Under the pieces are notes generated by a model. That model worked only from the letters and a program-made list of their open reading frames with translations. It did no database searches and was not told where the DNA came from. The position numbers were made by a program, and so were the translations under genes. A stretch of DNA of 64,000 nt from a bacterium. Its GTDB lineage: Bacteria > UBA8248. Below are positions 29,964 through 57,357 of this stretch, piece by piece (the first letter of the stretch is position 1; every line of letters starts with the position of its first letter). The stretch lies in contig CBDBBI010000010.1 in the NCBI GenBank assembly GCA_965202625.1, forward strand, positions 1,024,001 to 1,088,000. The letters run 5' to 3'.

Positions 29964-30079
29964 ATAGTCGAAGTCGCTCTCTACTGAGCCGGATAGCCCG
30001 GCCCGGAGAGCGTCTCAGCGATCCTCCCCGTCGGCGATGCACGACGTCGTTCCCCGCAAAATTTTGACCGAGTGCGTCT
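29964..30079 (-). repeat. Degenerate direct copy of the prpE 3' end (37334-37497)
   Basis: ATAGTCGAAGTC..CCGGATAGCCC..CCGTCGGCGATGC..CGTTCCCCG.AAAATTTTG aligns with about 85% identity and a roughly 47 bp deletion. Confidence 0.9.
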
Positions 30080-30152
30080 GAACGGATGGGCGGCGAACAA
30101 CAAGCTGAGGGCGGGACGTGCGCGAACCGGTAATAGGTTTTAGGTTTGTCCG

Positions 30153-30252
30153 AAGCCGCAACGCGCGGGCGATGAACACCCTCCGCCAGATGCAGTCTCT
30201 TGCTCGTGGATTTCAAGGCAAACGACTGACCTGGCAAGACCTCACGAAGTGA
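30153..30252 (+). mobile_element. IS1595-family transposase C-terminal remnant
   Basis: RNARAMNTLRQMQSLARGFQGKRLTWQDLT* matches the GKRL.(Y/W)..L ending of IS1595 transposases. Confidence 0.6.
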
Positions 30253-30355
30253 ATCATCCCCATATCTGGGACGCTTGACTCCAAAAATCTACCTCATATC
30301 GAGTGAAAAAAGTCGAGAGTTCCGCTGGAGGACCGGAGCTATCGTTGGAAAGGGC

Positions 30356-31105
30356 TCATGCAGACCGCCTCGTCTGCTCTGCTGAAATATCCATAATACC
30401 CTGAGATTTCAATACCTCATCTCTGAGGACTACGCCTACAACGTCCAAGACCTGCTTTAACGCAATGCCATTATTATAGGCGGACATTTGCATTGCTTCC
30501 CGTGGTATTTTTTCCGTTAAATCATCAAGGAGATTTTCTTGGGCATACGCAAAGCACATCTCCTGTATTTCGTAGGCATTCTTGTCTTTACCGCTTATTT
30601 GTTCCTTTAATGCTTCTGCATATCCCGAAATCCATTCGTTGATTTGTATTTCTTCAGCAACCCTTTCCCCCAGTTCGCTGAGCCTGCGCGGGCTATCGGA
30701 TTCCGTTGTTTCGGGAGGGGGCAATCGCGAAAAAATAGATTTTATGTCTGCTCGTATTTCCTTTACCTCATTTTTGATTTCGCTTCGTATTGCATTTGTT
30801 TCATTTTTGATTTCCGCTCGTATTGCATTTGTTTCATTTCTGATTTCGCTTCGTATTGCATTTGTTTCATTTCTGATTTCATCTCGTATTTCTTTTGTTT
30901 CATTGCTGATTTCATCTCGTATTTCTTTTATCTGATCTCGAATTTCTCCCATAAATGTCGATATGCTCTCTCCCTTTTCGTTTACTTTTGCAATCCATGT
31001 TGCAGCGCGTATTGCAGCCCATATTGCAAGAGCAAAGAGGACGACAATAATGAGTAATATATTTCCTTTGAAGGCTTCAAGGAGAAATACGTTGATGGAG
31101 CTCAT
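30356..31105 (-). CDS. Membrane-anchored coiled-coil protein with 11-aa repeats
   Basis: N-terminal TM helix, NETNAIRSEI(R/K) repeats, low GC. Confidence 0.7.
   Translation of the reverse strand: MSSINVFLLEAFKGNILLIIVVLFALAIWAAIRAATWIAKVNEKGESISTFMGEIRDQIKEIRDEISNETKEIRDEIRNETNAIRSEIRNETNAIRAEIKNETNAIRSEIKNEVKEIRADIKSIFSRLPPPETTESDSPRRLSELGERVAEEIQINEWISGYAEALKEQISGKDKNAYEIQEMCFAYAQENLLDDLTEKIPREAMQMSAYNNGIALKQVLDVVGVVLRDEVLKSQGIMDISAEQTRRSA
30770..30940. repeat. 33-bp coding tandem repeat, about 5 copies
   Basis: TTT(T/C)TGATTTCGCTTCGTATTGCATTTGTTTCA unit repeated with variation, no spacers. Confidence 0.85.
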
Positions 31106-31272
31106 AGCAAGACCTCACAAAATGAAAGGCATCCTTTGCTATTTGCTAACCTGTTGTTTTGGATTTCTTGTCCGCCGCCCGTAAAAATGGATTTAGCGAT
31201 TTCCTGCGCGGTTGCGGGCAGGGGTTTGATGACGTTCTTCAAAGTCCGGCCCGGCGACTTTGAAGTGTTCAT
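31102..31272 (-). CDS. Small hypothetical protein, possible IS passenger
   Basis: MNTSKSPGRTLKNVIKPLPATAQEIAKSIF; stop overlaps the next start. Confidence 0.4.
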   Translation of the reverse strand: MNTSKSPGRTLKNVIKPLPATAQEIAKSIFTGGGQEIQNNRLANSKGCLSFCEVLL

Positions 31273-31369
31273 AGGCGCCCCCCTATGGCGACATATCATG
31301 TTCAGGTGAAAAATCCACCTGAGCAAATTTACCATATCACACCTTAAAAGAAACCTAATTTCATTATCC

Positions 31370-31399
31370 TTGACAAGTCAAAAACCGTTCTACTATACT
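31370..31399 (+). promoter_or_regulatory. Near-consensus sigma70 promoter
   Basis: TTGACA, 18 bp spacer, TATACT. Confidence 0.7.
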
Positions 31400-31578
31400 C
31401 TCGCCTATCGTCAAGCAACTTGCAGAGCGGCCTTGGCTACCGTGTCGCCTGCCAAACGCAAAACCGCTCCGCGTGGGCGGAAACAGGCAGGAACCCACCA
31501 CTGGGCTGTGCGTTGTTTGGCGACGGACCCGGCTTTGTCATTAGGCATGTTTCTTTTTTTCAGGGAGGAGGTCTCAAC

Positions 31579-32244
31579 ATGAAGAGATGGGGATTTCTGT
31601 GCGCAGCGGCTGCTCTCATTTTGGTCTTGTCGGCTCCCCTCATGGCAAGAGCACAAGAGGGGGGAAGTCAACAAGAGGGGGCGGGGAAATGGTATTGGAA
31701 ATTCAACGTGGGGATATTGTCGCCAAGAGATTTGGAGAGCACCGCACCACCCTCACCTACCCTCAACGCGGACATTGATACCGGGGTTTTCGTGAGCACC
31801 TCCGTTGGCCGTTCTTTCGGTCGCCTGAGGGGAGAGGTGGAGGTTTTGTATGGAGAAGTCGATTACACACTGGACGCAACTACAAGAGGCGTGAACGGAG
31901 ACGTCGTCGACATCACTCGCATCGGGGGGGAGTTCGCGGAGTTCGAAGCCAAAATTACGGGGCTGATGTTCAACGCATGGTTTGACCTGGGCGCGAGCGA
32001 CTGGGCACTCAACCCCTACGTAGGGGGAGGGGTTGGAGTGATGCATCTCGACGTGCCACGTGGTACCGACAGCGGCTTCTCCTGGCAACTCGGTGCGGGC
32101 GCAATTTTTCCCATAGGCAATAATCTGGCACTTGACGCCAGCTACCGGTTTCTGAACACCGCCTACGAACCTGAAATTTTCTCTATTGTGTATGAGGATA
32201 TCGAGGCACACGCATTCTTGCTGGGCATCAAGCTCACGTTCTAG
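31579..32244 (+). CDS. Outer membrane beta-barrel protein (OmpA/Opa-like)
   Basis: GGAGGAGG RBS, signal peptide, NPYVGGGVG, WQLGAG, terminal Phe. Confidence 0.88.
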   Translation: MKRWGFLCAAAALILVLSAPLMARAQEGGSQQEGAGKWYWKFNVGILSPRDLESTAPPSPTLNADIDTGVFVSTSVGRSFGRLRGEVEVLYGEVDYTLDATTRGVNGDVVDITRIGGEFAEFEAKITGLMFNAWFDLGASDWALNPYVGGGVGVMHLDVPRGTDSGFSWQLGAGAIFPIGNNLALDASYRFLNTAYEPEIFSIVYEDIEAHAFLLGIKLTF

Positions 32245-32256
32245 TCCGATTCGCAC

Positions 32257-32296
32257 AAGGCCGGCCCCTGCTGATGCGGGGCCGGCTTTTGTTTTT
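32257..32296 (+). terminator. Rho-independent terminator
   Basis: GCCGGCCCC/GGGGCCGGC stem followed by TTTTGTTTTT. Confidence 0.85.
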
Positions 32297-32390
32297 GTGC
32301 TCGTTGCCCAAGGGAGTCGCCAACCCCAAAAACACCCAGCGGGCACAGGAATTGCTCGGCAGCGGGGGCCGGGGAGGCAGCTGGCTTTGC

Positions 32391-33152
32391 TTAAGAGGTG
32401 AGGAGAGATTTCTCCTGAATGGTTCTTGATGGGTTGATTCCAAACGCTTGAGGCATTTCAGTCCACGTTCTGCCATCCAGCGTTCGACCCGTCTTTTTCT
32501 TGAATACGCCGCCCCATTGCTTGAAGAAAAAAGGCGTGCCGCTGCCCACGCAATTATCCCGAATCTCTCGCGCCCAGTCCGGCTCCATGGGCCTTGCGCC
32601 CGGACCGCTTTCGCCGCCGACGATGACCCAGTCAATGCCGTCCAGATCCAGACTCGGCAAGGGTTCAAGCAGCGGCTCAAGAGAGAGAAACTTCGTTCGG
32701 GCACCCGTTTGCCGGAGCAGGCGCGCCCGGTTCAGAAAATCCGCAGACTCAATGCTCGTCCCCAGCCAGATGTTCGGCGTCCAGCGAAGCCGCCGGCTCC
32801 ACCGGACAGCGCGTCCCGGCCGCTTCGTGAGCACCTGAAACGTGTGCTGGGTCGCGCGGTTCATCACCCCGAACACGGCCTCAAGGAAGTCCAGCGGCAC
32901 CGCTCGGTGAAACAGATCGCTCATAGAGTTCACGAAAACAAGGCGCGGCTTGCGCCACTTCAGAGGCTCTTCCAGAATGGATGGGTGGGTTCTGAGCGAA
33001 AAGCCGTCCGCGTACTTGCGGGTCCCCATCCCCTGGAGCCGCCTCGACATCCGCGCAGCGTAACAATGCTTGCACCCGGGGCTGATCTTCGTGCAACCGG
33101 TAGTCGGGTTCCAGGTGATTTCCGTCCACTCTATGCCGGAAACTTTAGGCAT
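32391..33152 (-). CDS. DUF5131 (phage Gp37/Gp68) family protein
   Basis: IEWT..TWNP.TGC.KISPGC.HCYA, NSMSDLFH, WVIVGGESG, FFFKQWGG. Confidence 0.92.
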   Translation of the reverse strand: MPKVSGIEWTEITWNPTTGCTKISPGCKHCYAARMSRRLQGMGTRKYADGFSLRTHPSILEEPLKWRKPRLVFVNSMSDLFHRAVPLDFLEAVFGVMNRATQHTFQVLTKRPGRAVRWSRRLRWTPNIWLGTSIESADFLNRARLLRQTGARTKFLSLEPLLEPLPSLDLDGIDWVIVGGESGPGARPMEPDWAREIRDNCVGSGTPFFFKQWGGVFKKKTGRTLDGRTWTEMPQAFGINPSRTIQEKSLLTS

Positions 33153-33154
33153 GG

Positions 33155-33895
33155 CTAAATGTGACCCAGAATGTGGCCTGCAATCCGAGTAGCTGGAGCA
33201 ATTCCCCTGGGGTGGCCTACGCAAAACATAAATTCAAATAGCGCCGAATTCTTGGAGTTTTTAAGAGTTCGGGATTTTTCGAGAAACCTGTCTCTAAATA
33301 AGCACTTAAGATTTCTTTTGTATATGGAGGTCAGGCCCCCGACGCCAGAGTCTCTCTCATAATGAAGACCTCCAAATAGATCAGTGTTTTCCTGATACAG
33401 GCCTCTCCATCTCTCATCACCGAATACTTTTGTGAGTCGCTCAGCCCACTTTGGCTCAACTTCCTCGGGCATTCTTGATTTCGGCAACATCCTAGCAACA
33501 GCGGACGTAGGGAAGAGAATCCAGGTATCGAGCACCTTAAGGTTGGCTATCTTTTCAATAGTCGCCCATGCAACTTCCGTGGCGAAGCGCCGCTTCGCCG
33601 CCGCGTCCGCCGCGCAAAACCCGCTGTCGTGGGCCTCCGAGGTTGCCACAATGTGTTCAATGTCCGTCTGGTGCCTGCTGGAAAACGTCCGCCCGGTGTA
33701 TGGCCCATACGTCCGGCCCCCAAGACCGGCAACGATGCGGGCCTCAAGAGATTGCGAATACGGATAGTCGCGCCGCTTGTCGTAGGGTGCGCACCGGTGC
33801 TCGGGTGCGACCACGAGGCCGCGCCAGGTGTCAGCGGCCCACATGGTTGCGGGAGTGAGCGCAACGAGAGCGAAAACGAATATACACAAAATCAC
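33155..33895 (-). pseudogene. In-frame chimera: secreted HNH-type nuclease N-half fused to three-Cys-motif partner (TcmP) C-half
   Basis: Signal peptide and DIEHIVA..EAHDSG, then an abrupt switch at FA to TEVAWATIEKIA..DTWILFP..LKNSKNSALF; GC drops at the junction. Confidence 0.7.
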
Positions 33896-33925
33896 CCTTC
33901 ATCCACCCCCTTGGTGCCGACCGCC

Positions 33926-34246
33926 TTAACGGTTTCCCTCTTTGCATCGAACGCGGTAATAGATTCGGCTGCCCGCAGCGCCGAGGTTATATTCCCGAAT
34001 CACTTTCCGCTCGAAAATCTCGTATCCACCGGGGCACAAGTCGTTGTCAGTGAGGTAGAGCTTGAGCCTCGATAGTCTGTTGGATTCAGCGGAGGAGCTG
34101 TCATGCGGAGTGAGCGGGCCAGCTACCGCCTCGTACTGAAACGTCCCGTCGGACAATGGCCTGAATCTGGTATCGAATATAGTGTCGTGCGCAGAACAAC
34201 CCATTAATGCCAGGAACGCAAAAACGGCCAGGCCTTTCGCAAACAT
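33926..34246 (-). CDS. Small lipoprotein, copy 1
   Basis: GGAGGAGG RBS, lipobox LMGC, CPGGY..C. Confidence 0.8.
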   Translation of the reverse strand: MFAKGLAVFAFLALMGCSAHDTIFDTRFRPLSDGTFQYEAVAGPLTPHDSSSAESNRLSRLKLYLTDNDLCPGGYEIFERKVIREYNLGAAGSRIYYRVRCKEGNR

Positions 34247-34412
34247 CGGCTCCTCCTCCCTCAAAAAGTCCGCGCCATCCAGCACACCTCTCCCAAAACC
34301 TCCGCACCGCGCGGAGGCGGGATGGGCTCCCACGCCGGATGATCGCTCTCCAGAATCCACCGCCCCTCCACCCACACCGCGCGCGGCCACAGCGAACAGG
34401 CTGCAGACCGCC

Positions 34413-34739
34413 TTAACGGTTTCCCTCTTTGCATCGAACGCGGTAATGGATTCTGTGGGCCAAAGCGTCGGAGCCATATTCCCGAATCGCTATCCGCTCG
34501 AAAACCTCGTATCCACCGGGGCACAAGTCGTTGTCAGTGAGGTAGAGCTTGAGCCTCAATAGTCTGTTGGCTTCAGCGGAGGCACTCTTCGGCGGATAGA
34601 ACGGGCCAGCTACCGCCTCGTACTCAAACGTCCCGTCGGACAATGGCTTGAATCTGTGATCGTATCCAGTGATGCGCGCAGTAGTACAACCCATTAATGC
34701 CAGGAACGCAAAAACGGCCAGGCCTTTCGCAAACATCAT
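34413..34739 (-). CDS. Small lipoprotein, copy 2
   Basis: Same framework as copy 1, directly downstream of the repressor. Confidence 0.8.
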   Translation of the reverse strand: MMFAKGLAVFAFLALMGCTTARITGYDHRFKPLSDGTFEYEAVAGPFYPPKSASAEANRLLRLKLYLTDNDLCPGGYEVFERIAIREYGSDALAHRIHYRVRCKEGNR

Positions 34740-34750
34740 CTCCTCCTCCC

Positions 34751-35527
34751 TCAAAAAGTCCGCGCCATCCAGCACACCTCTCCCAACACCTCCGCCCCGC
34801 GCGGAGGCGGGATGGGCTCCCACGCCGGATGATCGCTCTCCAGAATCCACCGCCCGTCCACCCACACCGCGCGCTTGACCAGCAAGCCATCCTCGCCGCG
34901 CACCACGAATATCCGTCCGCTGTGCAGGTGCTTTTTTTTCATGTCAATGAGAATGGAGCAACCCGCCGGCAGCGTCGGCTCCATGGATTCGCCCGCCACG
35001 CGGATGATGCGGCACTGGGCGGCCTCCAGCCCTTGCTCCCTCAGCCACTCCGCGCGAAACGCCAGACGTCCCGCCACCGTCTCGCTGTCCGCCTCCGCAC
35101 CGCCTCCCGCCGCCGCGTCCACCTCCACGATTTCCACGTGACGGAAATGGAAAGCGTCCGTATTTCCGGCGGCCTCCGATTCTGCCGCGTCGCGCAATTT
35201 GTCCAGGGTACCGGCCGCATCGCGCAAGCGGGAGAGCTCCGCATCGAAAGCCTCCTCCAGCATTCGCTTCGCCGAGCCCTCCTGGAGTGCCGCCGCCCCT
35301 GATGCATCGGGCACCCCTGATGCACCGGGTGGGGCGACGAGAGGAAATTCAATGCCCAGAGCTTCGCAAATCTGGGCGGCGCGCCCGATAGAAGGTTGCT
35401 GTCCGTCCAGGATTCCCTGGAAACTTCGCACAGGAATCCCCGCACGCATTGCCGCCGCGCGTACGGACTCACCATTCCTTGCGAGGTGATCACGAACATC
35501 TTTCACAAACCGTTCCCTTACTCCCAT
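34751..35527 (-). CDS. Phage CI-like repressor (HTH plus S24 peptidase)
   Basis: N-terminal HTH, AAAGGG cleavage region, GESMEP Ser, VKR Lys. Confidence 0.9.
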   Translation of the reverse strand: MGVRERFVKDVRDHLARNGESVRAAAMRAGIPVRSFQGILDGQQPSIGRAAQICEALGIEFPLVAPPGASGVPDASGAAALQEGSAKRMLEEAFDAELSRLRDAAGTLDKLRDAAESEAAGNTDAFHFRHVEIVEVDAAAGGGAEADSETVAGRLAFRAEWLREQGLEAAQCRIIRVAGESMEPTLPAGCSILIDMKKKHLHSGRIFVVRGEDGLLVKRAVWVDGRWILESDHPAWEPIPPPRGAEVLGEVCWMARTF

Positions 35528-35528
35528 G

Positions 35529-35618
35529 TGGCAATGTATAGCATATTGTGCCCCCAAATTGCCATTGGCATTATAATGCAAATATGGGCTTGACATCTTG
35601 GCGTAATAAAGCCATATT
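35529..35618. promoter_or_regulatory. Divergent phage switch with three operator-like repeats
   Basis: TGGCAATGTATAGCA, TGGCATTATAATGCA, TGGCGTAATAAAGCC; TTGACA at 35590 with CATATT 17 bp later. Confidence 0.6.
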
Positions 35619-35624
35619 GGCCTT

Positions 35625-35873
35625 ATGACGCCAAACCAGATCATCCACCTTATAGACGTCATGGCCGAGGCGACCGCCCGAAGCCCGCACACGCTCGCCC
35701 GCTACGCTGCCGGCTCCGGAGATTTCTACGCGCGCCTGAAGGTTGGACACGACATCACGACCCGCCGCGCCGCGCGCGTCGTTCAATGGTTCTCCGATCA
35801 ATGGCCCTCCGACCTGGAGTGGCCGTCGGACGTTCCCCGCCCTGTGCCGAAAGCGAAGGAGAGTGCCGCGTGA
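35625..35873 (+). CDS. Cro/Ner-like small DNA-binding protein
   Basis: Divergent from the repressor; WFSDQWPSDLEWPSDVPRP tail. Confidence 0.75.
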   Translation: MTPNQIIHLIDVMAEATARSPHTLARYAAGSGDFYARLKVGHDITTRRAARVVQWFSDQWPSDLEWPSDVPRPVPKAKESAA

Positions 35874-36628
35874 GCGGGTGCGATCTGCGGGTGATAACGG
35901 AGGAATCCCCCCCCGTTTCGCCGGCGAAACAGGCACACGAAGCGCCGCGGCCCCTCTTTCATGAAGGGCTTGGGCGGGATCGCTGGGCGGAGATCGGGCG
36001 CGATCTTTCCCACTGGGCGGAGAACACGCAATGGGAAATGGGAGAATGGGCTCTGTTTGGGGAGGCGTCTTTTGGCGAGAGGACGCTGCGGGAGGTGGCG
36101 TCCGGTCTGAAAATCAGCGCGGGCAAACTGTCCAACTGCCGACTGGTCGCCAAGAATTTCCCCGCGTTTCGCCGGCGAAACGCCTTGAGTTTTTCTCACC
36201 ATCTCGAAGTGGCGCGCCTGCCGCAAGCGGAGGGCGACGAAATTCTCGCCCGCGCCGAGGCGGATGGATGGACGCGAGAGCAGATTCGGAAGGAAGCGCG
36301 CGAAGCGCGGGCGGCGGTGCTGGCGTGCCTGGTGCGCGAGAACGAGGCGCTTCGCGCGGAGAATGCGCGGCTCAAAACCACGCCGGCGGCGGCGAAGGAT
36401 GCGGCGCGCGACCTGGAGAGACGCGCGAAGGCCGCCGCCCGAAAGGTGAGCGCGGCGTTTGCGGACCTCGCGCGGGTACTGGGCGAGGCGGGTGCATCGG
36501 CGGAAATCACAGGTTTGCACGGCAACGCGCGCGCGGCACTCGACGCGCGCCTGAAACGCATCGTGTGCTCGGCTGGAAGGGATGCGGCCGGCGTGCAGAT
36601 GCGCTTCACTTTCGGGGCGGGCGAATGA
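35870..36628 (+). CDS. Phage protein with LmbU-like domain
   Basis: WEMGEWALFGE, RRRNALSFSHHLEVA, ARAEADGWT; GTGA/ATGA overlaps with neighbours. Confidence 0.65.
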   Translation: MSGCDLRVITEESPPVSPAKQAHEAPRPLFHEGLGRDRWAEIGRDLSHWAENTQWEMGEWALFGEASFGERTLREVASGLKISAGKLSNCRLVAKNFPAFRRRNALSFSHHLEVARLPQAEGDEILARAEADGWTREQIRKEAREARAAVLACLVRENEALRAENARLKTTPAAAKDAARDLERRAKAAARKVSAAFADLARVLGEAGASAEITGLHGNARAALDARLKRIVCSAGRDAAGVQMRFTFGAGE

Positions 36629-37284
36629 ATCCCCACGCCCGTGAAACCGCCCAGCAACCCTCTTTCATCGCCCTGGAAACGCCCGAAAAACTCCCTTGCA
36701 ACGACCTGGAAACCGCCTGGAACGCCGCCACGGACGCCCAGAAAGAGCGCGCCGTCAAGCGGCTGCGTGCGGTCGAGCGTTCCGAGGCTTTGGCGGCGGA
36801 GGGGATAGTGCGCGCGGAGGCGGACGGAATAGCGGCACTTGAATGCGGCGCGTCCAAATCCGCCGTCGCCACCTGGCGGCGTCGCGCACGAGGTGCGGGG
36901 CGGGGAGATAGACTGCGCACGCTTCTTGACGCACCGGGGCGCGGACGGCCGCGTGCAGAATGGACGGGCACGGCGGCGGAGACGCTCTGGACGCTGTGGC
37001 GCACGGACTGGCTCCGAGAGGAAGCACCGGATGCGGCGGCGGCACATCGGCGGGTGGAGGCGGTCGCCCAGGCGCGGGGCTGGGAATGTCCGCCCCTCCA
37101 GGCGTTCACCCGCAGGGTGCGGCGCGAGGTTTCCCGCCGCGAAGTCGTACGCGCGCGCAAGGGTGCCCTCGCCGCCATGAACACCTCGCCCCACCAGACG
37201 CGAAGCGTGGAGGCGGGATGGGCTCCCACGCCGGATGATCGCTCTCCAGAATCCACCGCCCCTCCACCCACACCGCGCGCTTGA
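36625..37284 (+). pseudogene. Mu-like transposase N-terminal DNA-binding region, truncated
   Basis: Position after cI/ner, WLREEAP..AAHRR..ARGW, PHQTRSV; ends in foreign sequence before any DDE domain. Confidence 0.65.
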
Positions 37285-37297
37285 CCAGCAAGCCATC
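37209..37297. repeat. 89-bp direct copy of repressor segment 34803-34891
   Basis: Identical except CCCCTCC vs CCCGTCC. Confidence 0.93.
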
Positions 37298-37351
37298 TCG
37301 GTAGAGGCACACGTCGGCTTTTGTTCTTGTTCAATAGTCGAAGTCCCTCCT

Positions 37352-39247
37352 CTACTTCCCCGGATAGCCCAGGCCGGCGAGGGTCTCGGCGATCTCGGGC
37401 AGGATGGCCGGGTCGTCAATGGTGGCAGGTGCCTTGTATTCCTCGCCGTCGGCGATGCGCGACATCGTTCCCCGTAAAATTTTGCCCGAGCGCGTCTTGG
37501 GCAGGCGCTTCACCACTGCCGCCTGACGGAATGCGGCCACGGCGCCGATCTGGCGGCGCACGAGCTGCACCACCTCGCCGACGACCTCCGCATCCTCCCT
37601 CTCAACGCCCGACGTCAAGACCAGAAAACCGAGGGGAAGCTGGCCCTTGAGCTGATCCTTCACTCCGATGACGGCACACTCCGCCACGTCGGGATGCGAG
37701 GTCAACACCTCCTCCATCGCGCCCGTGGAGAGCCTGTGGCCCGCCACGTTGATGATGTCGTCCGTCCTCGACATCACATAGACGTAGCCCTCCTCGTCCA
37801 CGTAGCCGGCATCGCCCGTTTTGTAGAAGCCCGGATATTCGCTCAGATAGGAATCGACAAAACGCGCGTCCGCGTTCCAGAGGGTGGGGAGACAACCGGG
37901 CGGCAGGGGCAGTTTGACGCACAGCGCGCCCATCTCGCCCGCACCCAGTGCGCGGCACTCGCTGTCGAGAACCCGAAAATCGTAGCCGGGAACGGGCTTC
38001 GTGGGGGAGCCGTATTTGACGGGCAGATGCTCGATTCCGATGGAGTTCGCCAGCATCGGCCAGCCGCTCTCCGTCTGCCAATAGTGGTCGATGACGGGAA
38101 CCCCCAGCTTATCCTCCGCCCACTGCACCGTGTCCGGGTCGGATCGCTCCCCCGCCAGAAAAAGGGTGCGGAAACAGCCGAGGTCGTAATTTCGCATGAG
38201 TTCAGCGTCCGGATCATCGCGCTTGATAGCGCGAAACGCCGTGGGCGCCGTGAACAAAACCTTCACCCCATGCTCGGAGATGACGCGCCAGAAAGCGCCT
38301 GCGTCGGGCGTGCCCACGGGCTTGCCCTCAAACAGGATGGTCGCGCAGCCGTGGAGCAGCGGCGCATACACGATGTAGGAATGCCCCACCACCCAGCCTA
38401 CGTCGGACGCCGCCCAGAACACCTCGCCCGGCGCCACGCCATACACGTTTCGCATCGACCACTTGAGCGCCACCATGTGGCCGCCGTTGTCTCGAACCAC
38501 CCCCTTGGGCTGTCCCGTCGTGCCCGAGGTGTAGAGGATATAAAGGGGGTCCGTGGCGGCGACGGGAACACAGGCCGCAGGCATCGCGCCCCGCAGCGCA
38601 TCGCCCCATTCGACGTCGCGGCCCTCGATGAGCTCCGCCTCCGCCTGGGCGCGCTGCAGGATGACGCACTTCTCCGGCTTCACGCTCGAGAGGTTGATCG
38701 CCTCATCGAGCAGGGGCTTGTAGGCGATGACGCCCGAGGGTTCCACTCCGCACGAGGCGGATATCATGAGTTTCGGCTTTGCGTCCTCGATCCGCGCCGC
38801 CAGCTCGTTCGGTGCGAACCCGCCGAAGACGACCGAGTGCACCGCGCCGATGCGCGCGCAGGCGAGCATGGAGATCGCCGCCTCGGGTACCATCGGCATG
38901 TAGATGATGACGCAGTCGCCCTTCTCCACCCCCAGGGATTTGAGCGCGCCCGCGAAATGCGCCACCTCGCGCAGCAACTCCCCATAGGTGAACTTTCGGG
39001 CAGGCGCACCCGTGATGGGGGTGTCGTATATCAGGGCGAGTTGATCCGCGCGTCCCGCCTCGACGTGACGATCCAGTGCGTTGTAGCAGGTGTTGACCTC
39101 GCCTCCTGCGAACCAGCGATAGAAAGGAGGGCGGGAATCATCCAGCACCCTCTCCCATCTCTTGTGCCAGTGCACGTCCTCCGCCGCCTCCGCCCAGAAC
39201 GCCTCCGCGTCCAAGAGAGAGCGGGCGTGAACCTCTGCGTAGCCCAT
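37352..39247 (-). CDS. prpE: Propionyl-CoA synthetase
   Basis: YTSGTTGQPKG, RDNGGH, DHYWQTE, RLPKTRSGKILR, PATIDDP. Confidence 0.88.
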   Translation of the reverse strand: MGYAEVHARSLLDAEAFWAEAAEDVHWHKRWERVLDDSRPPFYRWFAGGEVNTCYNALDRHVEAGRADQLALIYDTPITGAPARKFTYGELLREVAHFAGALKSLGVEKGDCVIIYMPMVPEAAISMLACARIGAVHSVVFGGFAPNELAARIEDAKPKLMISASCGVEPSGVIAYKPLLDEAINLSSVKPEKCVILQRAQAEAELIEGRDVEWGDALRGAMPAACVPVAATDPLYILYTSGTTGQPKGVVRDNGGHMVALKWSMRNVYGVAPGEVFWAASDVGWVVGHSYIVYAPLLHGCATILFEGKPVGTPDAGAFWRVISEHGVKVLFTAPTAFRAIKRDDPDAELMRNYDLGCFRTLFLAGERSDPDTVQWAEDKLGVPVIDHYWQTESGWPMLANSIGIEHLPVKYGSPTKPVPGYDFRVLDSECRALGAGEMGALCVKLPLPPGCLPTLWNADARFVDSYLSEYPGFYKTGDAGYVDEEGYVYVMSRTDDIINVAGHRLSTGAMEEVLTSHPDVAECAVIGVKDQLKGQLPLGFLVLTSGVEREDAEVVGEVVQLVRRQIGAVAAFRQAAVVKRLPKTRSGKILRGTMSRIADGEEYKAPATIDDPAILPEIAETLAGLGYPGK

Positions 39248-39765: not shown

Positions 39766-40224
39766 ATGGCGTCATCAGAGACGAAAGCGGCACCTGACGG
39801 GCGGCGCGGCTTCATCGCCACCCTCTTTATGCTTGGCGGCCTCATCGTCAGCTATGGAACGGCCGCCGTCTATGGATTGCGCTATCTTTTCGGCAGGCAG
39901 CTTCCTCCCCGCATGACGCAAGTCCTCACCGCCACCCTTTCCGCCATCCCCGACGGCGGAAGCATCATCGGGAGCGATCTGTCGGGCAGAAAATTCCTGC
40001 TCGTGCGCGCGGGCGATACGGTGCGCGCGTTTTCCACCGCCTGTACCCATCTGGGATGCCAGGTCTATTGGCAGGACGAGAAGAAGGTGTTCTTCTGTCC
40101 CTGCCACAACGGCTTCTTCGACGCCGACGGCAACCCCACGTCGGGGCCTCCGCCCACACCGCTCGCCCAATACCCCGTCGAAATACGCGGGACGAGCATT
40201 TTCGTCACCATGCCCGAGGCCTGA
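39766..40224 (+). CDS. Rieske iron-sulfur subunit
   Basis: Tat-like RRGF, TM helix, CTHLGC and CPCH, GPPP. Confidence 0.93.
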   Translation: MASSETKAAPDGRRGFIATLFMLGGLIVSYGTAAVYGLRYLFGRQLPPRMTQVLTATLSAIPDGGSIIGSDLSGRKFLLVRAGDTVRAFSTACTHLGCQVYWQDEKKVFFCPCHNGFFDADGNPTSGPPPTPLAQYPVEIRGTSIFVTMPEA

Positions 40225-40227
40225 GCC

Positions 40228-41283
40228 ATGAACAGCCGGATTCCGCGCTGGGTCGGAGAGCGAATTCCCTTCGACTGGGATCACCTCAAGCACATCACGA
40301 GCGAACCCATTCCGCGTCACCTGAAAAAATGGTGGTTTTGCGTGGGCGGAACCCCGCTGTATCTGTTCCTCATTCAAATCCTCACGGGCATCGCCCTCAC
40401 CTTCTACTACGTGCCCGAGCCGGGCAAGGCGTATGAATCGGTGCGCCACATCACCGAGGCGGTCCCCTTCGGCTGGTGGGTTCGCGGAATACACCGCTGG
40501 GCGGGAGAGCTGATGGTGGTGACCGTCATCCTGCACATGATGCGGGTATTCTTCACGGGTGCGTATCGCAAACCCCGCGAGATCAACTGGCTCATCGGCA
40601 TGGGACTTCTCATCACCATATTCACCTTCGGCTTCACGGGCTATTCCCTGATCTACAACCAACTCTCTTACTGGGCGACCGTGGTGGGCACCAACATCGC
40701 CGCAGCGGTGCCCGTGGCAGGCCCCTATCTCGCCGGCTTCATCCGCGGAGGGCCCGTCATCAGCGCGAACACGCTGACGCGCTTCTACGTGCTCCACATC
40801 GGCATTTTGCCGACCACCGCCTTCATCCTGCTCGCCCTCCACATCTTTTTCATCCGCATTCACGGGGTGAGCGAATTCATCGACCCCCGCGACGAGGAAG
40901 CGAAAAAAGACCGATTTTTCCCGTTTTTCCCCGATCACCTCCTGACCGAAGTAGCCCTTGGGGTTTTTCTCATATTTCTGGTCAGTCAGCTGGCCATCAT
41001 CTTTCCCGCGCAGATGGGCGCGCCGGCGAATCCGGCCATCACGCCTGAACACATCAAGCCTGAGTGGTATTTCTACCCGGTGTTCCGCTGGCTGAAGCTG
41101 TTCTCCTTCGAGACGGGCATCATCGGCGCAATTCTCATCGTCATCGTCATGTTCGCCTGGCCCTGGGTGGACGCCGCCCTGGAACGCCGGGCGCCCGGGC
41201 GGGACGTCAGCATATACGTGGGGGTGCTCGCCGTCCTCGCCATGACGATATTCATGATCATCGAGGGCCTTTCAGGCCACTAG
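40228..41283 (+). CDS. Cytochrome b (b6 plus subunit IV-like, fused)
   Basis: FCVGG, IHRW..LHMMRVF, YW, LH..LH, PEWY. Confidence 0.93.
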   Translation: MNSRIPRWVGERIPFDWDHLKHITSEPIPRHLKKWWFCVGGTPLYLFLIQILTGIALTFYYVPEPGKAYESVRHITEAVPFGWWVRGIHRWAGELMVVTVILHMMRVFFTGAYRKPREINWLIGMGLLITIFTFGFTGYSLIYNQLSYWATVVGTNIAAAVPVAGPYLAGFIRGGPVISANTLTRFYVLHIGILPTTAFILLALHIFFIRIHGVSEFIDPRDEEAKKDRFFPFFPDHLLTEVALGVFLIFLVSQLAIIFPAQMGAPANPAITPEHIKPEWYFYPVFRWLKLFSFETGIIGAILIVIVMFAWPWVDAALERRAPGRDVSIYVGVLAVLAMTIFMIIEGLSGH

Positions 41284-41307
41284 GAATAATGAGGAAGGGA
41301 GGAACTC

Positions 41308-44014: not shown

Positions 44015-44132
44015 CTCCCATCTCCCATGTGCAAGGCGAATCCTCCGCGCGCGACTGGACGCGGAGGAGCGGAATCATTTAGCCTCGACTCTCATCTGCT
44101 CTCACTATAATAGATTCGCTGGCGTCAGAAAA

Positions 44133-49642: not shown

Positions 49643-49680
49643 CTTTCAGGCCTCCAACCTCGACGTGAAAATCTGGCGGA

Positions 49681-50079: not shown

Positions 50080-50135
50080 CTGCGGGTTCCTTGTATGAGA
50101 AAAAACGGTTGATGACGCGAAGAAGAAAGGCGCGC

Positions 50136-51110: not shown

Positions 51111-51645
51111 TCCCAACGCCTCCCCCATTGTCAGACAAGAGAAAAAACCTCAAAAGCGGCCCCCATGCGCTCCCACCGGCGCGGCCTCGCTCCCCTGCGC
51201 CCGACAGCGAGATACTCCCCGTGTTTGGTGCGCTTCAAAGCATTGCTCCCCATCGTTCGCATCGCACGCAGCACCGCCCGCGTTTTTGACGGCATCATCA
51301 AAGGCGATGCCCGGCATACCAGACGCGCGAACAGCCCGGCGCATCCGCCGGAAGGCTCCCCTCGCCCATCTCCTCCGGGCGATACAAGACGTGAAAGGAG
51401 GAAAATCCATTCGGCCATCCCTGGTTCCCGCGCGCTGAGGGCGGCGTTGACAGATTCCCTTTCGGCGTCCACAAGGACTCCGACGCCATGAGCGTGGAAA
51501 GGGGTTTTCAGAGCTCCCGCATACGGGTTTGAAAGTTATAATGCCGACATCATCGCAATCGCGTCAAGGTTGGAGCGTGAAGTTTGCAGATTTCCTTTGA
51601 GGACATATTCTCGATGCGGCATACGCGCATCTCGCCGAGGTTATC

Positions 51646-52404: not shown

Positions 52405-52542
52405 ACCGCCCGAGGCGAAGCAGGGGGTGCGTCGAATTGACGAGGGCGAATCATCCAGGGTATTTTTTGTATTCATCATTGACACTGGAAAAACCGAGAC
52501 ACTGAGGCATATCCATCGGGTATCTCAAGAGGATCGAACAAA

Positions 52543-53295
52543 ATGCCAGTGAAAGTAAGCATCAAAAACCTGCACATGGAATACTACCTCAAGGACAGGA
52601 AGGTTCATGCCCTCAAGGAAATCAACCTCGACATTCAGAATGGAGAGTTCGTCTGCGTCGTGGGGTTGTCCGGATGCGGAAAGACCACTCTGCTGAACAT
52701 TCTTGCCGGATTCCTGGAGCATACGGCCGGCTCCATTCTGCTTGACGGCAAACCCATCTCGAATGCGGGCCGCATGAACCGGGGCGTCGTGTTTCAGGAA
52801 TACGCGCTCTTCCCCTGGCGTACGGCTCTTCGGAACGTCGAATTCGGACTTGAGATGAAGGGACTGAGCAGGGAGGAGCGCACGAAAAAAGCCCAGGAAT
52901 ACCTCTCGCTCGTCCACCTGGAGAAGTTCACCCACCTGTATCCCCACAACCTCTCGGGCGGCATGAAGCAGCGCGTCGCCGTGGCGAGGGCATACGCCTA
53001 CGAACCCCAATTCATGCTGATGGACGAGCCCTTCGGCGCACTCGACGCGCAGACGAGGGAGAATCTCCAGTCCCTGACGGTCGAGGTCTGGGAGAAGACC
53101 CAAAAAACCATCTTCTACGTCACGCACAACCTCAGCGAAGCGGTTTATCTTGCGGACAGAATCATCGTCCTCGCCGGCCAGCCGGGGAAAATTCACAAAG
53201 AGATCAGGGTGGACCTCCCCCGGCCCAGAGACCCGTTCGACCCCAAGGTGGTGGACCTCGAACATCAGACGACCGAGGCGGTGCGCGGCAACTGA
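52543..53295 (+). CDS. ABC transporter ATP-binding protein (nitrate/sulfonate/taurine type)
   Basis: GLSGCGKT, LSGGMKQR, MDEPFGALD, LPRPR. Confidence 0.93.
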   Translation: MPVKVSIKNLHMEYYLKDRKVHALKEINLDIQNGEFVCVVGLSGCGKTTLLNILAGFLEHTAGSILLDGKPISNAGRMNRGVVFQEYALFPWRTALRNVEFGLEMKGLSREERTKKAQEYLSLVHLEKFTHLYPHNLSGGMKQRVAVARAYAYEPQFMLMDEPFGALDAQTRENLQSLTVEVWEKTQKTIFYVTHNLSEAVYLADRIIVLAGQPGKIHKEIRVDLPRPRDPFDPKVVDLEHQTTEAVRGN

Positions 53296-53577
53296 AGCCG
53301 TCTCATCTGGGATTTTTTCCGAATTTTCCGGTGCAACAGCACATGCAGATCCGGACGCGAGAGCGCAAACTCCCGCAAGGGGGGAAGCCTGTGCTTACAA
53401 GTTTGGATTATTGAAAATGGAATGGTGCGCTTTTGGATTCGATAAAATAGCCCAACCTTCCTATTTTATAAGCATAGAAGGAGGGACACGATGAACATGA
53501 GAGATTTGCAAGACTTTTCACGCCGAAAGCGGGGAGGGATTCGATGATTCGATTCGCCAGTTTATCGGGGCGGCCGC

Positions 53578-54524
53578 ATGAACCGCCTGTTTTATGGGGA
53601 CAATCTTCAGATTATGGGAGAATTGCCTCCAAATAGCGTTGACCTCATCTATTTAGACCCGCCATTCAACTCGAACAAAAACTACAACCTCATGTATCGG
53701 GACATGGTGGGCCGTCCCGTTTCGGAACAAATAGAGGCGTTCTGCGACACATGGGAAATGGACGCCGAGAAGGAAGAGATCGCCCGGAAAATGCCGGTCC
53801 CTTATGCGAGAACAAGGGATCGAGGATTACTACGTCGATTTCTGGCGGCTCTGGATCAAGGCTTTGCGGCACACCCAGCCGCGCCCTCGCCTATCTCTCC
53901 TACATGTCGGAACGGCTTGCCGAGGCGCGCCGCCTCCTCAAGCCCACAGGCTCCATCTACCTGCATTGCGACCCGACCATGAGCCATTATCTGAAGGCGG
54001 TGATGGATGACGTTTTCGGCGTCAAGAATTTTAGAAACGAGATTATTTGGAGCGGCATTCCGCACGACCTCTCCAGTGCGCGGAAGCTCGCGCAGGACAA
54101 ACCCTTCGACTTCGAGAAATGGGCGATTTGCCGAATCCCCGGGCTCGCGCCAAACGCCAGGCAGGTGGGCGACGGGGGAATCGACGGACGTGGCCTGCTT
54201 TTGAACGCGCCCGACGATCACGATTCCCGCCTGGTACTGGCACAAGTCAAGGGTGGAAAATTCCAGGCGAGCGGGTTGCGGGATTTTCTGGGCGTCATGG
54301 AAAGGGATCGCGCCGCCATGGGCGTATTCATCACCCTGAACAGCGCGACCTCTCCCCATGCGCACACCGAAGCGGGGCGAAAGGGAAGCATCCGCATGGG
54401 CGCGTCTCAATATCCGCGCGCGCAATTATGGTCGATAGACGATCATTTCAGAAAGAATCAGCCGCACATGCCGCCCCTCGCCGACCCTTACACGGGCAAG
54501 GAAATGCAGCAGCCCCTGTTTTGA
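53578..54524 (+). pseudogene. N6/N4 DNA methyltransferase with Mrr-like C-terminal domain, frameshifted and internally deleted
   Basis: LIYLDPPFNS, TGSIYLHCD, NEIIW joined directly to SGIPHD (no FxGxG), GIDG..QVK. Confidence 0.8.
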
Positions 54525-54543
54525 CAATACGAAGGGAGATGAC

Positions 54544-54810
54544 GTGATATGGTTCGCGGAATTTATCGATTCAAGCGGAAAGTTCGTCGCGTTCGGCGAT
54601 GATCCCGAAGAGATGCCCGTCCACAAGGAACAGCGGAACGGCGGCCTCTATCCGACGCCCATGACCTTCCCCTCGTGTCTGAAGTTTCTCTGGGGAGCGG
54701 ATGAGGTGGCGCTGCCCCGCAAGGTCACCGAGCAGGAAATCCTGAATCGCTTCGCCGATCCCGATCATGAAGAAGACTGGGAGCGCGAACTGCGGCGCCG
54801 AACGACCTGA
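54544..54810 (+). CDS. Small hypothetical protein (MTFPSCLKFL family, copy A)
   Basis: GGGAG RBS; similar to 56053-56253. Confidence 0.65.
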   Translation: MIWFAEFIDSSGKFVAFGDDPEEMPVHKEQRNGGLYPTPMTFPSCLKFLWGADEVALPRKVTEQEILNRFADPDHEEDWERELRRRTT

Positions 54811-55047
54811 CGTTCTCGCCAACGGGGACTTTCCCGATTCTTTGGCGCGCTATCTGACGCCGCATTCCCTTGCCCAGCGCTGGACGTTCCCAGATCGCCC
54901 TCCGTTGTCTGGCGCACTATCTGACGCCTCTGACGCCATCACCTCGCGCTGGCCATGCTTCGCGCCTGTCCGTTATTTCCTTGGGAAATTTTGTTGATTT
55001 GTCGCCAATCGGATAGCGTTGGATTCGCCGTTTTCGCGTTGACGCAA

Positions 55048-55351
55048 GGCGCGGTTCCGAAATCCAAGACCTTCTGATGCGAAAACGGCCGACTCCCCGG
55101 AGGGGAGCCGGCCGCCTTAAGCCGCTCTTATCGCCGCTGACCGCCCACTTCCTCCATCATGCCCCACTTGACGACGGTCACCCTCTCGAACTTCTCAAAA
55201 ATGAATTTCTCCATCACGAATCCCACCAAAGCGATGGCCGCGATTCCCACGAGCATGAAAGCCGTATCCAGATCTTCACGGCTGTCGAATATGGCGTATC
55301 CCAAGCCCCAATCACTCGCGGCCACCATCTCTCCGGCGATGCCCGCGCGCC
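55048..55351 (-). repeat. Direct copy of the ABC permease 3' end and terminator (56407-56711)
   Basis: About 304 bp with roughly 3 differences. Confidence 0.96.
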
Positions 55352-55507
55352 GAAGCGGGACAAAAGGGGAACATCCGCATGGGCGCGTCCCAATATCCGC
55401 GCGCGCAATTATGGTCGATAGACGATCATTTCAGAAAGAATCAGCCGCACATGCCGCCCCTCGCCGACCCTTACACGGGCAAGGAAATGCAGCAGCCTCT
55501 ATTTTGA
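55350..55507 (+). repeat. Direct copy of the methyltransferase 3' end (54367-54524)
   Basis: 158 bp, about 7 substitutions, similarity ends at the stop codon. Confidence 0.95.
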
Positions 55508-55729
55508 GCTGACGCGCTGGCGGGGCGCGGATGGCGGGACAACGCGCTGATGCGCGGGCTTTATTCGCACTTTTAATATGTGATACAAGCAAAGGGCTCC
55601 GGGTAGAGACCGGAGCCCTTTTGATTTGCCCGTTCGCTTGCTGACAAGGTCGCTCACGGGATATGACCGCTGCCCCCAACATATCCTTTGCAAAGCGAAC
55701 CTGTCAACTTCATGGGAGGGGTTCGCTTT

Positions 55730-55999
55730 ATGGACGAGAAGACGCTTCTTTGCCGCGTTTGCAAGATCGAGCCGAAACGCGTCGAAGAGGAAGGAAAGCC
55801 TGATCTGATACGTTGTCCCCGGTGCGGCGCATTCGGTAATTTTGATGAAGTCCTTGAAGCGGCTTCCAGGCATTTGACAGGCAGCATCATAAACGACGGG
55901 TTCAATCGCCGCGCGCGTAAATCCAGGAGATCGAAGGTTATGCGCTACGTCCTCGGCAATCGCAAAAATATCACTGCCCCCGCTTTCATCTTTCAATGA
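55730..55999 (+). CDS. Small zinc-ribbon protein
   Basis: CRVC and CPRC, GGGAGG RBS. Confidence 0.6.
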   Translation: MDEKTLLCRVCKIEPKRVEEEGKPDLIRCPRCGAFGNFDEVLEAASRHLTGSIINDGFNRRARKSRRSKVMRYVLGNRKNITAPAFIFQ

Positions 56000-56052
56000 T
56001 GATTCCTCCTTGACGCGCGCTAGACGATCTCCCGACCGAAGCGTTTCCTGAT

Positions 56053-56253
56053 CTATTTCGCCGTCGTCTTGGCGGCATCGGTGATGTCGTCCGCACCGTG
56101 CAGGAATTTGAGGCAGGAAGGGAACGTCATCTCCGTTCTGGAATAGTCGGGACCGCCGCCGACGCCCAGGCTGTAGACGGGCAGGACGTTCCTGTTTTCT
56201 CCAAACGCGATGAATTTATGGTCGCCGTCCGTGAATTGCACCAGATAGATCAT
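56053..56253 (-). CDS. Small hypothetical protein (MTFPSCLKFL family, copy B)
   Basis: KFIAFG..MTFPSCLKFLHGADD matches copy A. Confidence 0.6.
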   Translation of the reverse strand: MIYLVQFTDGDHKFIAFGENRNVLPVYSLGVGGGPDYSRTEMTFPSCLKFLHGADDITDAAKTTAK

Positions 56254-56440
56254 TCGTATTTCTCCAAAATGGACTTATTGAACACGTCGGCGGCGAAGTT
56301 GGCGTTTTCCGCGCGGGAAACGCCCGACGGATTCATGGCGATTTCGGAGACGAGGGAGAACTTGATGGGACTTAGGGGATCTGCACCAAAGCGTCGAGGG
56401 CCAGGGGGCGCAGTTCCGAAATCCAAGACCTTCTGATGCG

Positions 56441-56474
56441 AAAACGGCCGACTCCCCGGGAGGGGAGCCGGCCG
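56441..56474 (-). terminator. Rho-independent terminator of the permease
   Basis: CGGCCGGCTCCCC/GGGGAGTCGGCCG stem then TTTT on the minus strand. Confidence 0.75.
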
Positions 56475-56487
56475 CCTTAAGCCGCTC

Positions 56488-57357
56488 TTATCGCCGCTGA
56501 CCGCCCACTTCCTCCATCATGCCCCACTTGACGACGGTCACCCTCTCGAACTTCTCAAAAATGAATTTCTCCATCACAAATCCCACCAAAGCGATGGCCG
56601 CGATTCCCACGAGCATGAAAGCCGTATCCAGATCTTCACGGCTGTCGAATATGGCGTATCCCAAGCCCCAATCACTCGCGGCCACCATCTCTCCGGCGAT
56701 GCCCGCGCGCCAGGCGCGCGCCAGGCCGATGCGGACGCCTGAGAGAATGAACGGCAGCGAACCTGGGAAGATGACCTTCCAGAACAAGGTCATCCCCTCC
56801 GCGTTCATCGACTTCGCAGCCCGTATCCAGATCGGATTGATGGTTTTCACCCCCGTCCACGTGGAGGAGATGGCGGGCAGTGCCGCGGCGAACGCGGTGA
56901 TGAAAATCATGGTGGTATTGCCGAGGCCGAACCACAAAACGAGAATCGGGCTCCAGGCCAGTGCCGGTATGGGCAGAAGCATGCTCAGGATGGGGATCAT
57001 GAATTTCTCGAACCAACCGACGCGGCCCATGGCGATGCCGATGGCTATCCCCACGAAGCCGGCGATGATCATTCCCACCATAATCCGCCAGGCGGTGTGA
57101 TAGGAGTGCACGCAGAGAACGCAGGTGGTATCGCCGGACTTGAGGAAAGTGACTTCATAAAAACGGTGCAAAATGGGCAGTGCCCGCGGAAAGAGCGCGG
57201 GCTCGTTCACAATCCAGGCGATGGACTCCCAAATCACCAGCACCGCGATAAAACTGGGAATGTTGTCCCTGATCCACATCCACATTTTTTCCTGCGCGGT
57301 GTATTCCGTCGGCAGCCTGACGTCATCCCTTCTGATTTCATCCGTCGCGGTGGTCAT
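56488..57357 (-). CDS. ABC transporter permease (nitrate/sulfonate type)
   Basis: PIPALAWSP, RAAKSM, LPFILSGVRIG, GEM..GLGY. Confidence 0.92.
   Translation of the reverse strand: MTTATDEIRRDDVRLPTEYTAQEKMWMWIRDNIPSFIAVLVIWESIAWIVNEPALFPRALPILHRFYEVTFLKSGDTTCVLCVHSYHTAWRIMVGMIIAGFVGIAIGIAMGRVGWFEKFMIPILSMLLPIPALAWSPILVLWFGLGNTTMIFITAFAAALPAISSTWTGVKTINPIWIRAAKSMNAEGMTLFWKVIFPGSLPFILSGVRIGLARAWRAGIAGEMVAASDWGLGYAIFDSREDLDTAFMLVGIAAIALVGFVMEKFIFEKFERVTVVKWGMMEEVGGQRR

Follow-up and report, generated by a model that had tools for sequence, protein, structure and literature searches.

Repeated gene 3' ends in a 64-kb stretch of a UBA8248 contig: probable scars of ordinary recombination in two islands of decaying mobile DNA

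Why should several unrelated genes in one stretch of bacterial DNA each be followed, at some distance, by a second copy of their own 3' end? The stretch, hereafter the window, comprises 64 kb (positions 1,024,001 to 1,088,000) of contig CBDBBI010000010.1 from a bacterium of the lineage UBA8248, and the genes are those of a prpE-like acyl-CoA synthetase, a phage repressor, a DNA methyltransferase and an ABC transporter permease. An earlier note on this DNA proposed that an undescribed uptake system, working with one homologous arm and one microhomology joint, stacks new DNA behind genes without breaking them. We consider it probable, with real room for doubt, that the repeats are instead what three or more separate recombination events of ordinary kinds have left behind in two islands of decaying mobile DNA, and that no dedicated system is involved.

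Our list of repeats is based on a self-BLASTN comparison of the whole window together with a separate repeat search. Self-BLASTN returned nine repeat rows, all nine of them direct, with E-values from 6e-10 to 0 that exclude chance matching for every listed repeat; it revealed no inverted repeats in the window. Two of the nine rows are unrelated to the question posed here: one is a 33-nt tandem array within a gene, the other comes from two SDR paralogues. The other seven correspond to the repeats first described, including two rows for a third piece of the repressor tail, and all four of the original repeats were recovered with their coordinates and identities intact. The claim that four genes share one geometry fares less well: the repeats are real, but they represent three junction events and not four, since the methyltransferase and permease repeats share a single novel joint, and a repressor fragment lying upstream of its gene does not fit the geometry.

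Every repeat that bears on the question falls within two mobile-DNA islands, one beside prpE (island 1) and one around the methyltransferase and permease genes (locus 2). The density of repeats is about 20 times background: seven rows in the 64-kb window, against approximately seven dispersed direct pairs in 1.30 Mb of sequence from 80 related loci, a background count that sets aside the tandem arrays of L004, L039 and L045 and the REP-like family of L054. The islands are where such recombination scars collect. As had been noted, the window holds no integrase: no tyrosine, serine or other site-specific recombinase was found among its 78 open reading frames (ORFs), nor in a six-frame scan of the two loci that covered 109 frames running from stop to stop over 55 aa or more. 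Pfam scans of the window turned up no competence or transfer genes. An integron finds no support in the form of an integrase family match, and Rfam gives tRNA-Leu only, attC folding not having been examined separately. Neither a motif shared among the joints nor a gene set that could serve as candidate machinery was found in the window.

The displaced prpE tail and its island

The prpE-like gene is intact (37352-39247, minus strand; Pfam, NCBIfam). The top NCBIfam match of its product is propionate--CoA ligase, at 761.8 bits, below the curated cut-off of 955, and the protein shares 88% amino-acid identity with its counterpart in L047 and 85% with those in L003 and L004, our three nearest relatives, all of which are metagenome-assembled chromosomes. 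The final 146 nt of the gene including the stop codon, together with 18 nt past the stop (R1, 37334-37497, minus strand), recur as a decayed copy (R1', 29964-30079, minus strand; self-BLASTN). The spacing originally given as about 7.2 kb is confirmed, with 7.25 kb lying between prpE and R1'. The pair aligns in two blocks, 37334-37394 with 29964-30023 (83.6% over 61 nt) and 37440-37497 with 30022-30079 (89.7% over 58 nt). About 47 nt are missing from R1', its frame is broken, and 82 of 96 aligned coding positions are the same as in prpE; the differences are spread near-randomly over the three codon positions (3, 5 and 6 differences, respectively) and affect five codons synonymously and eight non-synonymously. 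The broken frame, the missing nucleotides and the lack of codon-position preference together mark R1' as an old and, to judge from its sequence, neutrally decaying fragment. It starts 6 nt past the stop of a convergent GNA1162-like gene, mid-island, and is nearer to the window's own prpE tail, at those 82 of 96 positions, than to that of any relative. The idea that the intact prpE tail is itself a foreign mimic was rejected: its last 150 nt show no loss of identity relative to L047, L003 and L004.

The DNA between the HD-domain gene and prpE is a replacement island. Gene order is kept on either side of it, with window positions from 48174 down to 37361 corresponding to 3-11887 of L047, and those from 27401 down to 24108 to 13009-16173 of L047. 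Between these flanks all three nearest relatives carry 1.1-2.6 kb with an EamA transporter gene, whereas the window carries 9.95 kb of lower-G+C DNA (island 1, 27402-37351; delimited by tblastx synteny, Pfam and G+C content) from which EamA is absent; the island thus stands in place of the EamA gene. When island 1 and locus 2 were searched against the 80 related loci (tblastx, blastn), the prpE tail was the sole match. A comparison of empty and filled sites in relatives, which had been proposed as a check, was made for the prpE site: the relatives do hold other content there (EamA, in three of three), but a convincing prpE-tail repeat occurs in none of the 70 related loci with at least 1 kb of downstream sequence, where two weak matches of 25-33 nt were seen. 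In this sample, then, the prpE tail does not serve as a common attachment site. In L004 an extra 430-aa ORF of 93-nt tandem repeats (13060-14352) lies between the EamA and HD genes, and the interval downstream of prpE is thus variable within the clade.

What now separates prpE from R1' is phage-derived in part. A Mu-type transposase gene (36625-37209, plus strand; Pfam, PHROGs, protein match) is cut after codon 195: it breaks at 37209/37210, its DDE core is missing, and what is left is 98% the same (192/195) as residues 1-195 of an intact 591-aa transposase, P0125. A tblastn search of the transposase frame against phages gave no match. Since the transposase keeps only residues 1-195 of 591 and the DDE core is gone, the Mu-like module beside prpE is a remnant and not a working element. 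An S24-peptidase repressor gene (34751-35692, minus strand; Pfam, PHROG, tblastn against phages) has as its nearest relatives, by the latter search, the c repressors of Mu-like transposable phages. No Mu ends and no 5-bp target duplication were found, in a window that has no inverted repeats. Candidate Mu-type ends at 33915 and 34402, both of which start with TG, were rejected because a lipoprotein stop codon lies about 10 nt away, leaving no room for transposase-binding sites, and also for the lack of inverted repeats. Between the transposase breakpoint and the prpE stop lies the third repressor-tail fragment (37181-37297, minus strand), which is 98.7% identical over 76 nt to copy 1 of the tandem unit described below and 90.7% identical over 118 nt to copy 2. 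This piece sits upstream of the repressor gene and adjoins the transposase break, and it is the one that misfits the downstream-copy geometry.

A 98%-identical transposase stands beside an 85%-identical, broken repeat, and the 7.25 kb therefore cannot be the product of one uptake event. It is a mosaic of different ages; the prpE duplication is probably old and the content has since been turned over.

Tandem units and joints at the repressor and at locus 2

In the repressor region, 33915-34384 matches 34402-34874 at 90.3% over 473 nt, and the repressor-tail part of the match reaches 97%. Copy 1 of this tandem unit (33915-34384, minus strand) comprises an intact lipoprotein gene (allele 1, 33926-34246) and a fragment that holds 124 nt from the 3' end of the repressor gene (34261-34384); copy 2 (34402-34874, minus strand) comprises a second lipoprotein allele (allele 2, 34413-34739) and the true repressor 3' end. 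The layout first reported, repressor followed by lipoprotein followed by repressor 3' end, is correct as far as it goes, but the repeated element is a whole 0.49-kb tandem unit with a second intact lipoprotein gene. At the joint between the copies, 17 nt (34385-34401) align poorly to the other copy and could be either filler or strongly diverged homology.

The two lipoprotein alleles have identical signal peptides and differ in patches in their mature parts, at 26 non-synonymous against 2 synonymous codons (18, 18 and 3 differences at first, second and third codon positions, respectively); the repressor-tail copies show three differences, all three at third positions. In a set of 5.8 billion proteins the lipoprotein family has three members, the two window copies and P0124, all of which vary in the same patches, and no family match was found in Pfam, PHROGs, NCBIfam or PADLOC. 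From this pattern the alleles look to be under strong diversifying selection; that a phage-linked lipoprotein of this kind acts in superinfection exclusion is our guess. A diversity-generating retroelement was considered as the source of the pair and rejected, as the mismatches are not biased towards adenine and the scans turned up no reverse transcriptase.

At locus 2, repeats of two genes interlock. The first gene is a pseudogene of a DNA methyltransferase-Mrr-like nuclease fusion (53578-54524, plus strand; family scans, protein matches). Members of this family are 370-450 aa long and join a methyltransferase to an Mrr-like nuclease domain; the pseudogene carries a frameshift near its N-terminus, lacks about 169 internal residues through a deletion, retains residues 8-65 and 235-390 of its nearest relative (P0003), and keeps the natural C-terminus. 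Its last 54 codons form repeat A (54361-54524, plus strand), which is the natural C-terminus of the family and ends exactly at the stop, and which recurs as an orphan tail, repeat A' (55344-55507, plus strand), at 94.5% identity over 164 nt. The second gene, an intact ABC transporter permease gene of the taurine/SaoP-like type (56488-57357, minus strand; Pfam, NCBIfam), has its true 3' end and a terminator-like hairpin in repeat B' (56407-56711, minus strand). An orphan copy of its last 224 nt and the hairpin forms repeat B (55048-55351, minus strand), with 99.0% identity over 305 nt. By folding, both permease tails have a 16-bp G+C-rich hairpin followed by UUUU, which a simple consensus terminator scan misses because just four U follow.

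Two segments separate these arms: x (54525-55047, 523 nt) and y (55508-56406, 899 nt). No gene is recognisable in either: the frames of x and y give nothing above threshold in Pfam, PHROGs, NCBIfam or PADLOC, and the ESM Atlas results for one ORF from each (scores of 0.75-0.85, low recognition) are uninformative. Self-BLASTN finds no similarity between x and y. The order along the locus is A-x-B and then A'-y-B', with a single novel joint at 55344-55351, where A' overlaps B in an imperfect microhomology of about 8 nt and the interior of the permease gene is fused to the interior of the methyltransferase-Mrr gene. A methyltransferase gene followed by cargo and its last 158 bp, and a permease gene followed by cargo and its last 0.3 kb with terminator, had been listed as separate cases. 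Both repeats stand, and the hairpin is present in both permease tails, but the two are the same event, the methyltransferase gene is a pseudogene, and the cargo holds no recognisable gene. The arms have diverged unequally, with 9 mismatches in 164 positions for A and 2 in 304 for B (Fisher P=0.0018).

The permease gene has a possible partner on the other side of this region. An ABC ATPase gene (52543-53295, plus strand) and the permease gene (56488-57357, minus strand), both of taurine/Sao type, face each other and form no joint operon, and the 3.2-kb gap between them consists of degraded restriction-modification DNA. Inversion or splitting of an ancestral operon is a possible origin of this arrangement.

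Across the younger repeats, 11 of 15 differences fall at the third position of a codon (P=0.0018); entering a shared variant only once gives 10 of 14 (P=0.004). The orphan fragments are now beyond selection, so the differences were most likely acquired when each copy still belonged to a working gene, in different strains or phages. This in turn suggests that the younger copies are diverged functional alleles that have been joined, and not the products of one copy decaying in place. If so, the identity between two copies reflects the divergence of their donors and is no measure of age. The range of identities from 85% to 99%, taken at first as a sign that the events differ in age, does not bear that interpretation here.

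Ordinary recombination and its rivals

From these features we infer the order of events, the donors and the recombination enzymes as follows. Event 1, which is old, would be a Campbell-style insertion behind prpE of a molecule carrying a short copy of the prpE tail. Its agent may have been a site-specific integrase, of the kind that acts for e14 or phage 21 at icd/icdC but with its gene now gone, or alternatively a RecA single crossover, and it would have left prpE whole at one end and a displaced pseudo-fragment of the 3' end at the other. The interior of the insert would have turned over later, so as to consist now of a recently truncated Mu-like prophage plus phage and defence remnants. Events 2 and 3, which are younger, would each have joined two diverged alleles of one short segment head to tail, the segment being the repressor tail plus lipoprotein gene in event 2, and the methyltransferase-Mrr tail, spacer and permease tail in event 3. 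Both show homology on one side and an illegitimate joint, with microhomology or filler, on the other, and would have come about either through homology-facilitated illegitimate recombination (HFIR) or, equally, through single crossover of a circularised fragment, with the older allele retained as an orphan behind the newer. The original suggestion of a homologous arm combined with a microhomology joint is thus reasonable for two events, those with joints at the repressor and at locus 2, but it does not suit prpE, where the insert is a mosaic.

This scheme would also account for the position of the repeats. The duplicated fragment is a 3' piece whenever a gene points into the inserted or duplicated segment, while insertions of an internal fragment break the gene and are lost. 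Genes stay unbroken because every duplicative insertion, be it Campbell-type integration by an integrase, a RecA single crossover or an anchor combined with an illegitimate joint, leaves a full copy of each gene that it touches besides a fragment, and because events that would ruin useful genes do not persist. Stacking behind genes without breaking them, which had been offered as the trait of a system, therefore follows from any duplicative insertion combined with selection, and no special system is needed to explain the shared geometry. The geometry is also not peculiar to 3' ends: at 5185-6114 of L003, 105-nt direct repeats (86%) bracket an insert at the divergent promoter between a PALP-enzyme gene and an M24-peptidase gene, the gene in the insert (5436-5969) resembles a REP-associated tyrosine (Y1) transposase, and the insert is absent from both the window and L047.

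Published precedents cover all three layouts, and we take the features to be further examples of recombination scars whose kinds are already known. One precedent is e14 in Escherichia coli K-12, which has an intact icd on one side and a displaced C-terminal pseudogene, icdC, at its far end (PMC13626634). As with e14 and phage 21 at icd/icdC, the prpE case has an intact gene and a displaced 3' fragment with phage-derived content between them; e14, however, carries its own integrase and excises, whereas no integrase is left at prpE, the repeat there is old and broken, and the interior is a mosaic with a Mu-type remnant, which represents another integration system.

HFIR and single-crossover integration provide precedents for the younger events. 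In HFIR, which is known from Acinetobacter, S. pneumoniae, P. stutzeri and E. coli conjugation, one homologous anchor and one illegitimate joint import non-homologous DNA (PMC3240628, PMC5361080). Anchor-like arms in the window are the repressor tail (97%), the permease tail (99%) and the methyltransferase-Mrr tail (94.5%), and events 2 and 3 have novel joints, one with microhomology (55344-55351) and one with 17 poorly aligned nt (34385-34401). The published cases differ in that they are laboratory cases with known donors and often delete recipient DNA, whereas the window shows partial duplication. Single-crossover integration gave duplications in 56 of 60 E. coli clones, with lengths of 109-950 bp in the 14 that were sequenced (PMC3240628), a range into which the window repeats (116-473 nt) fall. 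Campbell integration likewise duplicates the homologous segment around the insert and leaves the gene whole if that segment includes the gene end, but it requires a circular intermediate with the gene tail, and no such molecule is known here.

A further precedent is the C-terminal displacement that stacks orphan genes in Rhs, contact-dependent inhibition (CDI) and type VI secretion system (T6SS) effector-immunity clusters; PMC5361080 proposes HFIR as the origin of orphan arrays, citing experiments of 2002-2003 and work on Rhs. In these clusters new modules are placed behind a conserved part, and the older 3' part and its partner are pushed downstream and kept. The repressor tail with its two stacked lipoprotein alleles under strong diversifying change follows the same logic, although the window has no toxin or immunity genes involved and only two units. 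With the route in print (PMC5361080, PMC3240628), and with neither a gene set nor a joint motif to set the window apart, the claim of an undescribed system is not supported.

Several points weigh against our reading. R1' and the window's own prpE share their last codons and the 18 nt past the stop, which are absent in relatives, and this shared end is as compatible with duplication within the lineage as with a mimic carried by an element. The tail repeat is missing from the 70 related loci described above, no second occupied prpE site was found among the related loci, and no integrase was found for event 1. The longest identical run of the prpE pair is about 12 nt, though decay of the copy could have erased a core. 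Our account does not explain in detail where the third repressor fragment and the 17 nt between the tandem copies came from. For locus 2 the donor, the empty site and the single-allele state are all unseen, the related loci having been gathered with prpE. The codon-position test rests on small counts, and a roughly 20-fold repeat density exceeds what a purely generic process would give unless the islands are hot spots.

Could every repeat pair instead be the attL and attR of an integrative element inserted at a gene 3' end, with related elements accreting in tandem at the permease and repressor sites and their integrase genes later deleted? The repeat lengths of 116-305 nt would be within the range of the substitute end of icd, which reportedly measures about 165 nt. 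The islands are indeed built of phage and restriction-modification remnants, the homology of A stops exactly at a stop codon and that of B just past a terminator-like hairpin, and the prpE geometry equals that of e14 at icd/icdC (PMC13626634). We nonetheless regard this account as unlikely. Neither the 78 ORFs nor the 109 six-frame stretches give a tyrosine or serine recombinase signal, and the sole recombinase remnant is the Mu-type DDE transposase, a family not known to us to produce such repeats. The related loci, 0 of 70, offer no support from a second prpE-tail repeat; the joint at 55344-55351 fuses two gene interiors and looks illegitimate, not like an att core; and units of 0.49 kb and 1.0-1.4 kb are far too small for elements.

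A plainer alternative is that the repeats arose as tandem duplications in place, unequal or microhomology-mediated, within one genome, and that divergence and replacement of the interiors followed. All the window repeats are direct, the lipoprotein/repressor unit has the form of a textbook tandem repeat in which one joint is new, and at locus 2 too just one joint is new and shows microhomology. This account predicts homologous interiors, however, and these are found only in the lipoprotein unit: the 7.25 kb within the prpE repeat is not itself duplicated, and x and y lack similarity. For locus 2, the unrelated x and y together with arms A and B of unequal divergence (Fisher P=0.0018, as above) mean that plain in-place duplication fails. 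Given also that the orphan fragments differ mostly at third codon positions (11/15 or 10/14), we consider the account quite improbable overall.

An assembly artefact, in which variants of two co-occurring strains were strung in tandem, would explain why the copies look like alleles of one locus, and the nearest relatives are metagenome-assembled chromosomes, so the source of the window may be one too. The contig, however, is 2,917,376 nt long, which suggests long reads that would span 0.5-1.4 kb and probably 7.4 kb, and the joints are novel (17 poorly aligned nt in one case, an imperfect microhomology of about 8 nt in the other) and not the clean overlaps an assembler would make; an artefact is thus very improbable. 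Least credible of all is that an undescribed system, dedicated to homology-anchored uptake, assembles cassette arrays behind genes. In its favor, three events lie within 27 kb, repeats are about 20 times denser than in the 1.30 Mb of related loci, the alleles appear imported and an orphan lipoprotein allele has been kept intact. Against it, no candidate machinery was found in the window, the joints have no common motif, the third repressor fragment breaks the geometry, L003 shows that geometry at a 5' region, around a transposase-like gene of its own, and known generic routes already give the layout.

If the repeats are scars of ordinary recombination, as we favor, the window offers natural cases of two textbook processes in a poorly known lineage, with no new mobility system: the duplication of a gene tail flanking an island, and the stacking of orphan alleles through an anchor and an illegitimate joint. 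Repeats of a gene's own 3' end would then be a cheap marker of island borders and of decayed prophages without an integrase, and the codon-position test would separate imported alleles from decay in place. We also entertain, as a doubtful speculation, that this lineage, known only from metagenome-assembled chromosomes, often takes in DNA by one-ended recombination and stacks resident alleles as orphans. The sources may be co-occurring strains and related phages, and the hypervariable lipoprotein may accumulate as stacked alleles in this way. Were this true, the window would preserve natural, datable scars of a process that is documented mainly in laboratory crosses and has been inferred for toxin-immunity loci.

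Other contents of island 1 and its surroundings

Island 1 holds several further genes. In the part of the island outside the prpE repeats is an operon of CsgG-like, PEGA-like, DUF4810 and GNA1162-like lipoprotein genes (27555-29957, plus strand; Pfam). Inside the repeats, the first gene beyond R1' encodes a coiled-coil repeat protein (30356-31105, minus strand) and contains a tandem array of 33-nt units (30719-30979, six overlapping register copies) that gives an 11-residue repeat; the protein has weak PHROGs matches to tape-measure proteins. A small ORF separates it from an outer-membrane beta-barrel gene (31420-32244, plus strand). Divergent from the repressor gene is a gene for an LmbU-family-like regulator (35786-36628, plus strand), whose NCBIfam score of 95 bits does not reach the 125-bit cut-off.

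A DUF5131 (phage Gp37/Gp68) gene and an overlapping TcmP-like partner occupy 32391-33895 (minus strand), and in searches of 29900-37400 against phage and plasmid DNA the DUF5131 gene was the sole match. Only the C-terminal half of the TcmP-like partner is covered by its match to PDC-M41A, a candidate defence family of PADLOC (E=1e-27), and its N-terminal half may therefore have been replaced. By these matches the pair resembles the PADLOC candidate defence system PDC-M41.

On the other side of prpE, directly upstream of it, lies a cluster of Rieske, cytochrome b and multihaem cytochrome c genes (39766-42648) that is kept in L047. Farther along, synteny with L003 indicates that 43845-45254 (plus strand) is the gene of a PALP-family enzyme, in preference to a minus-strand ORF at 44280-45221.

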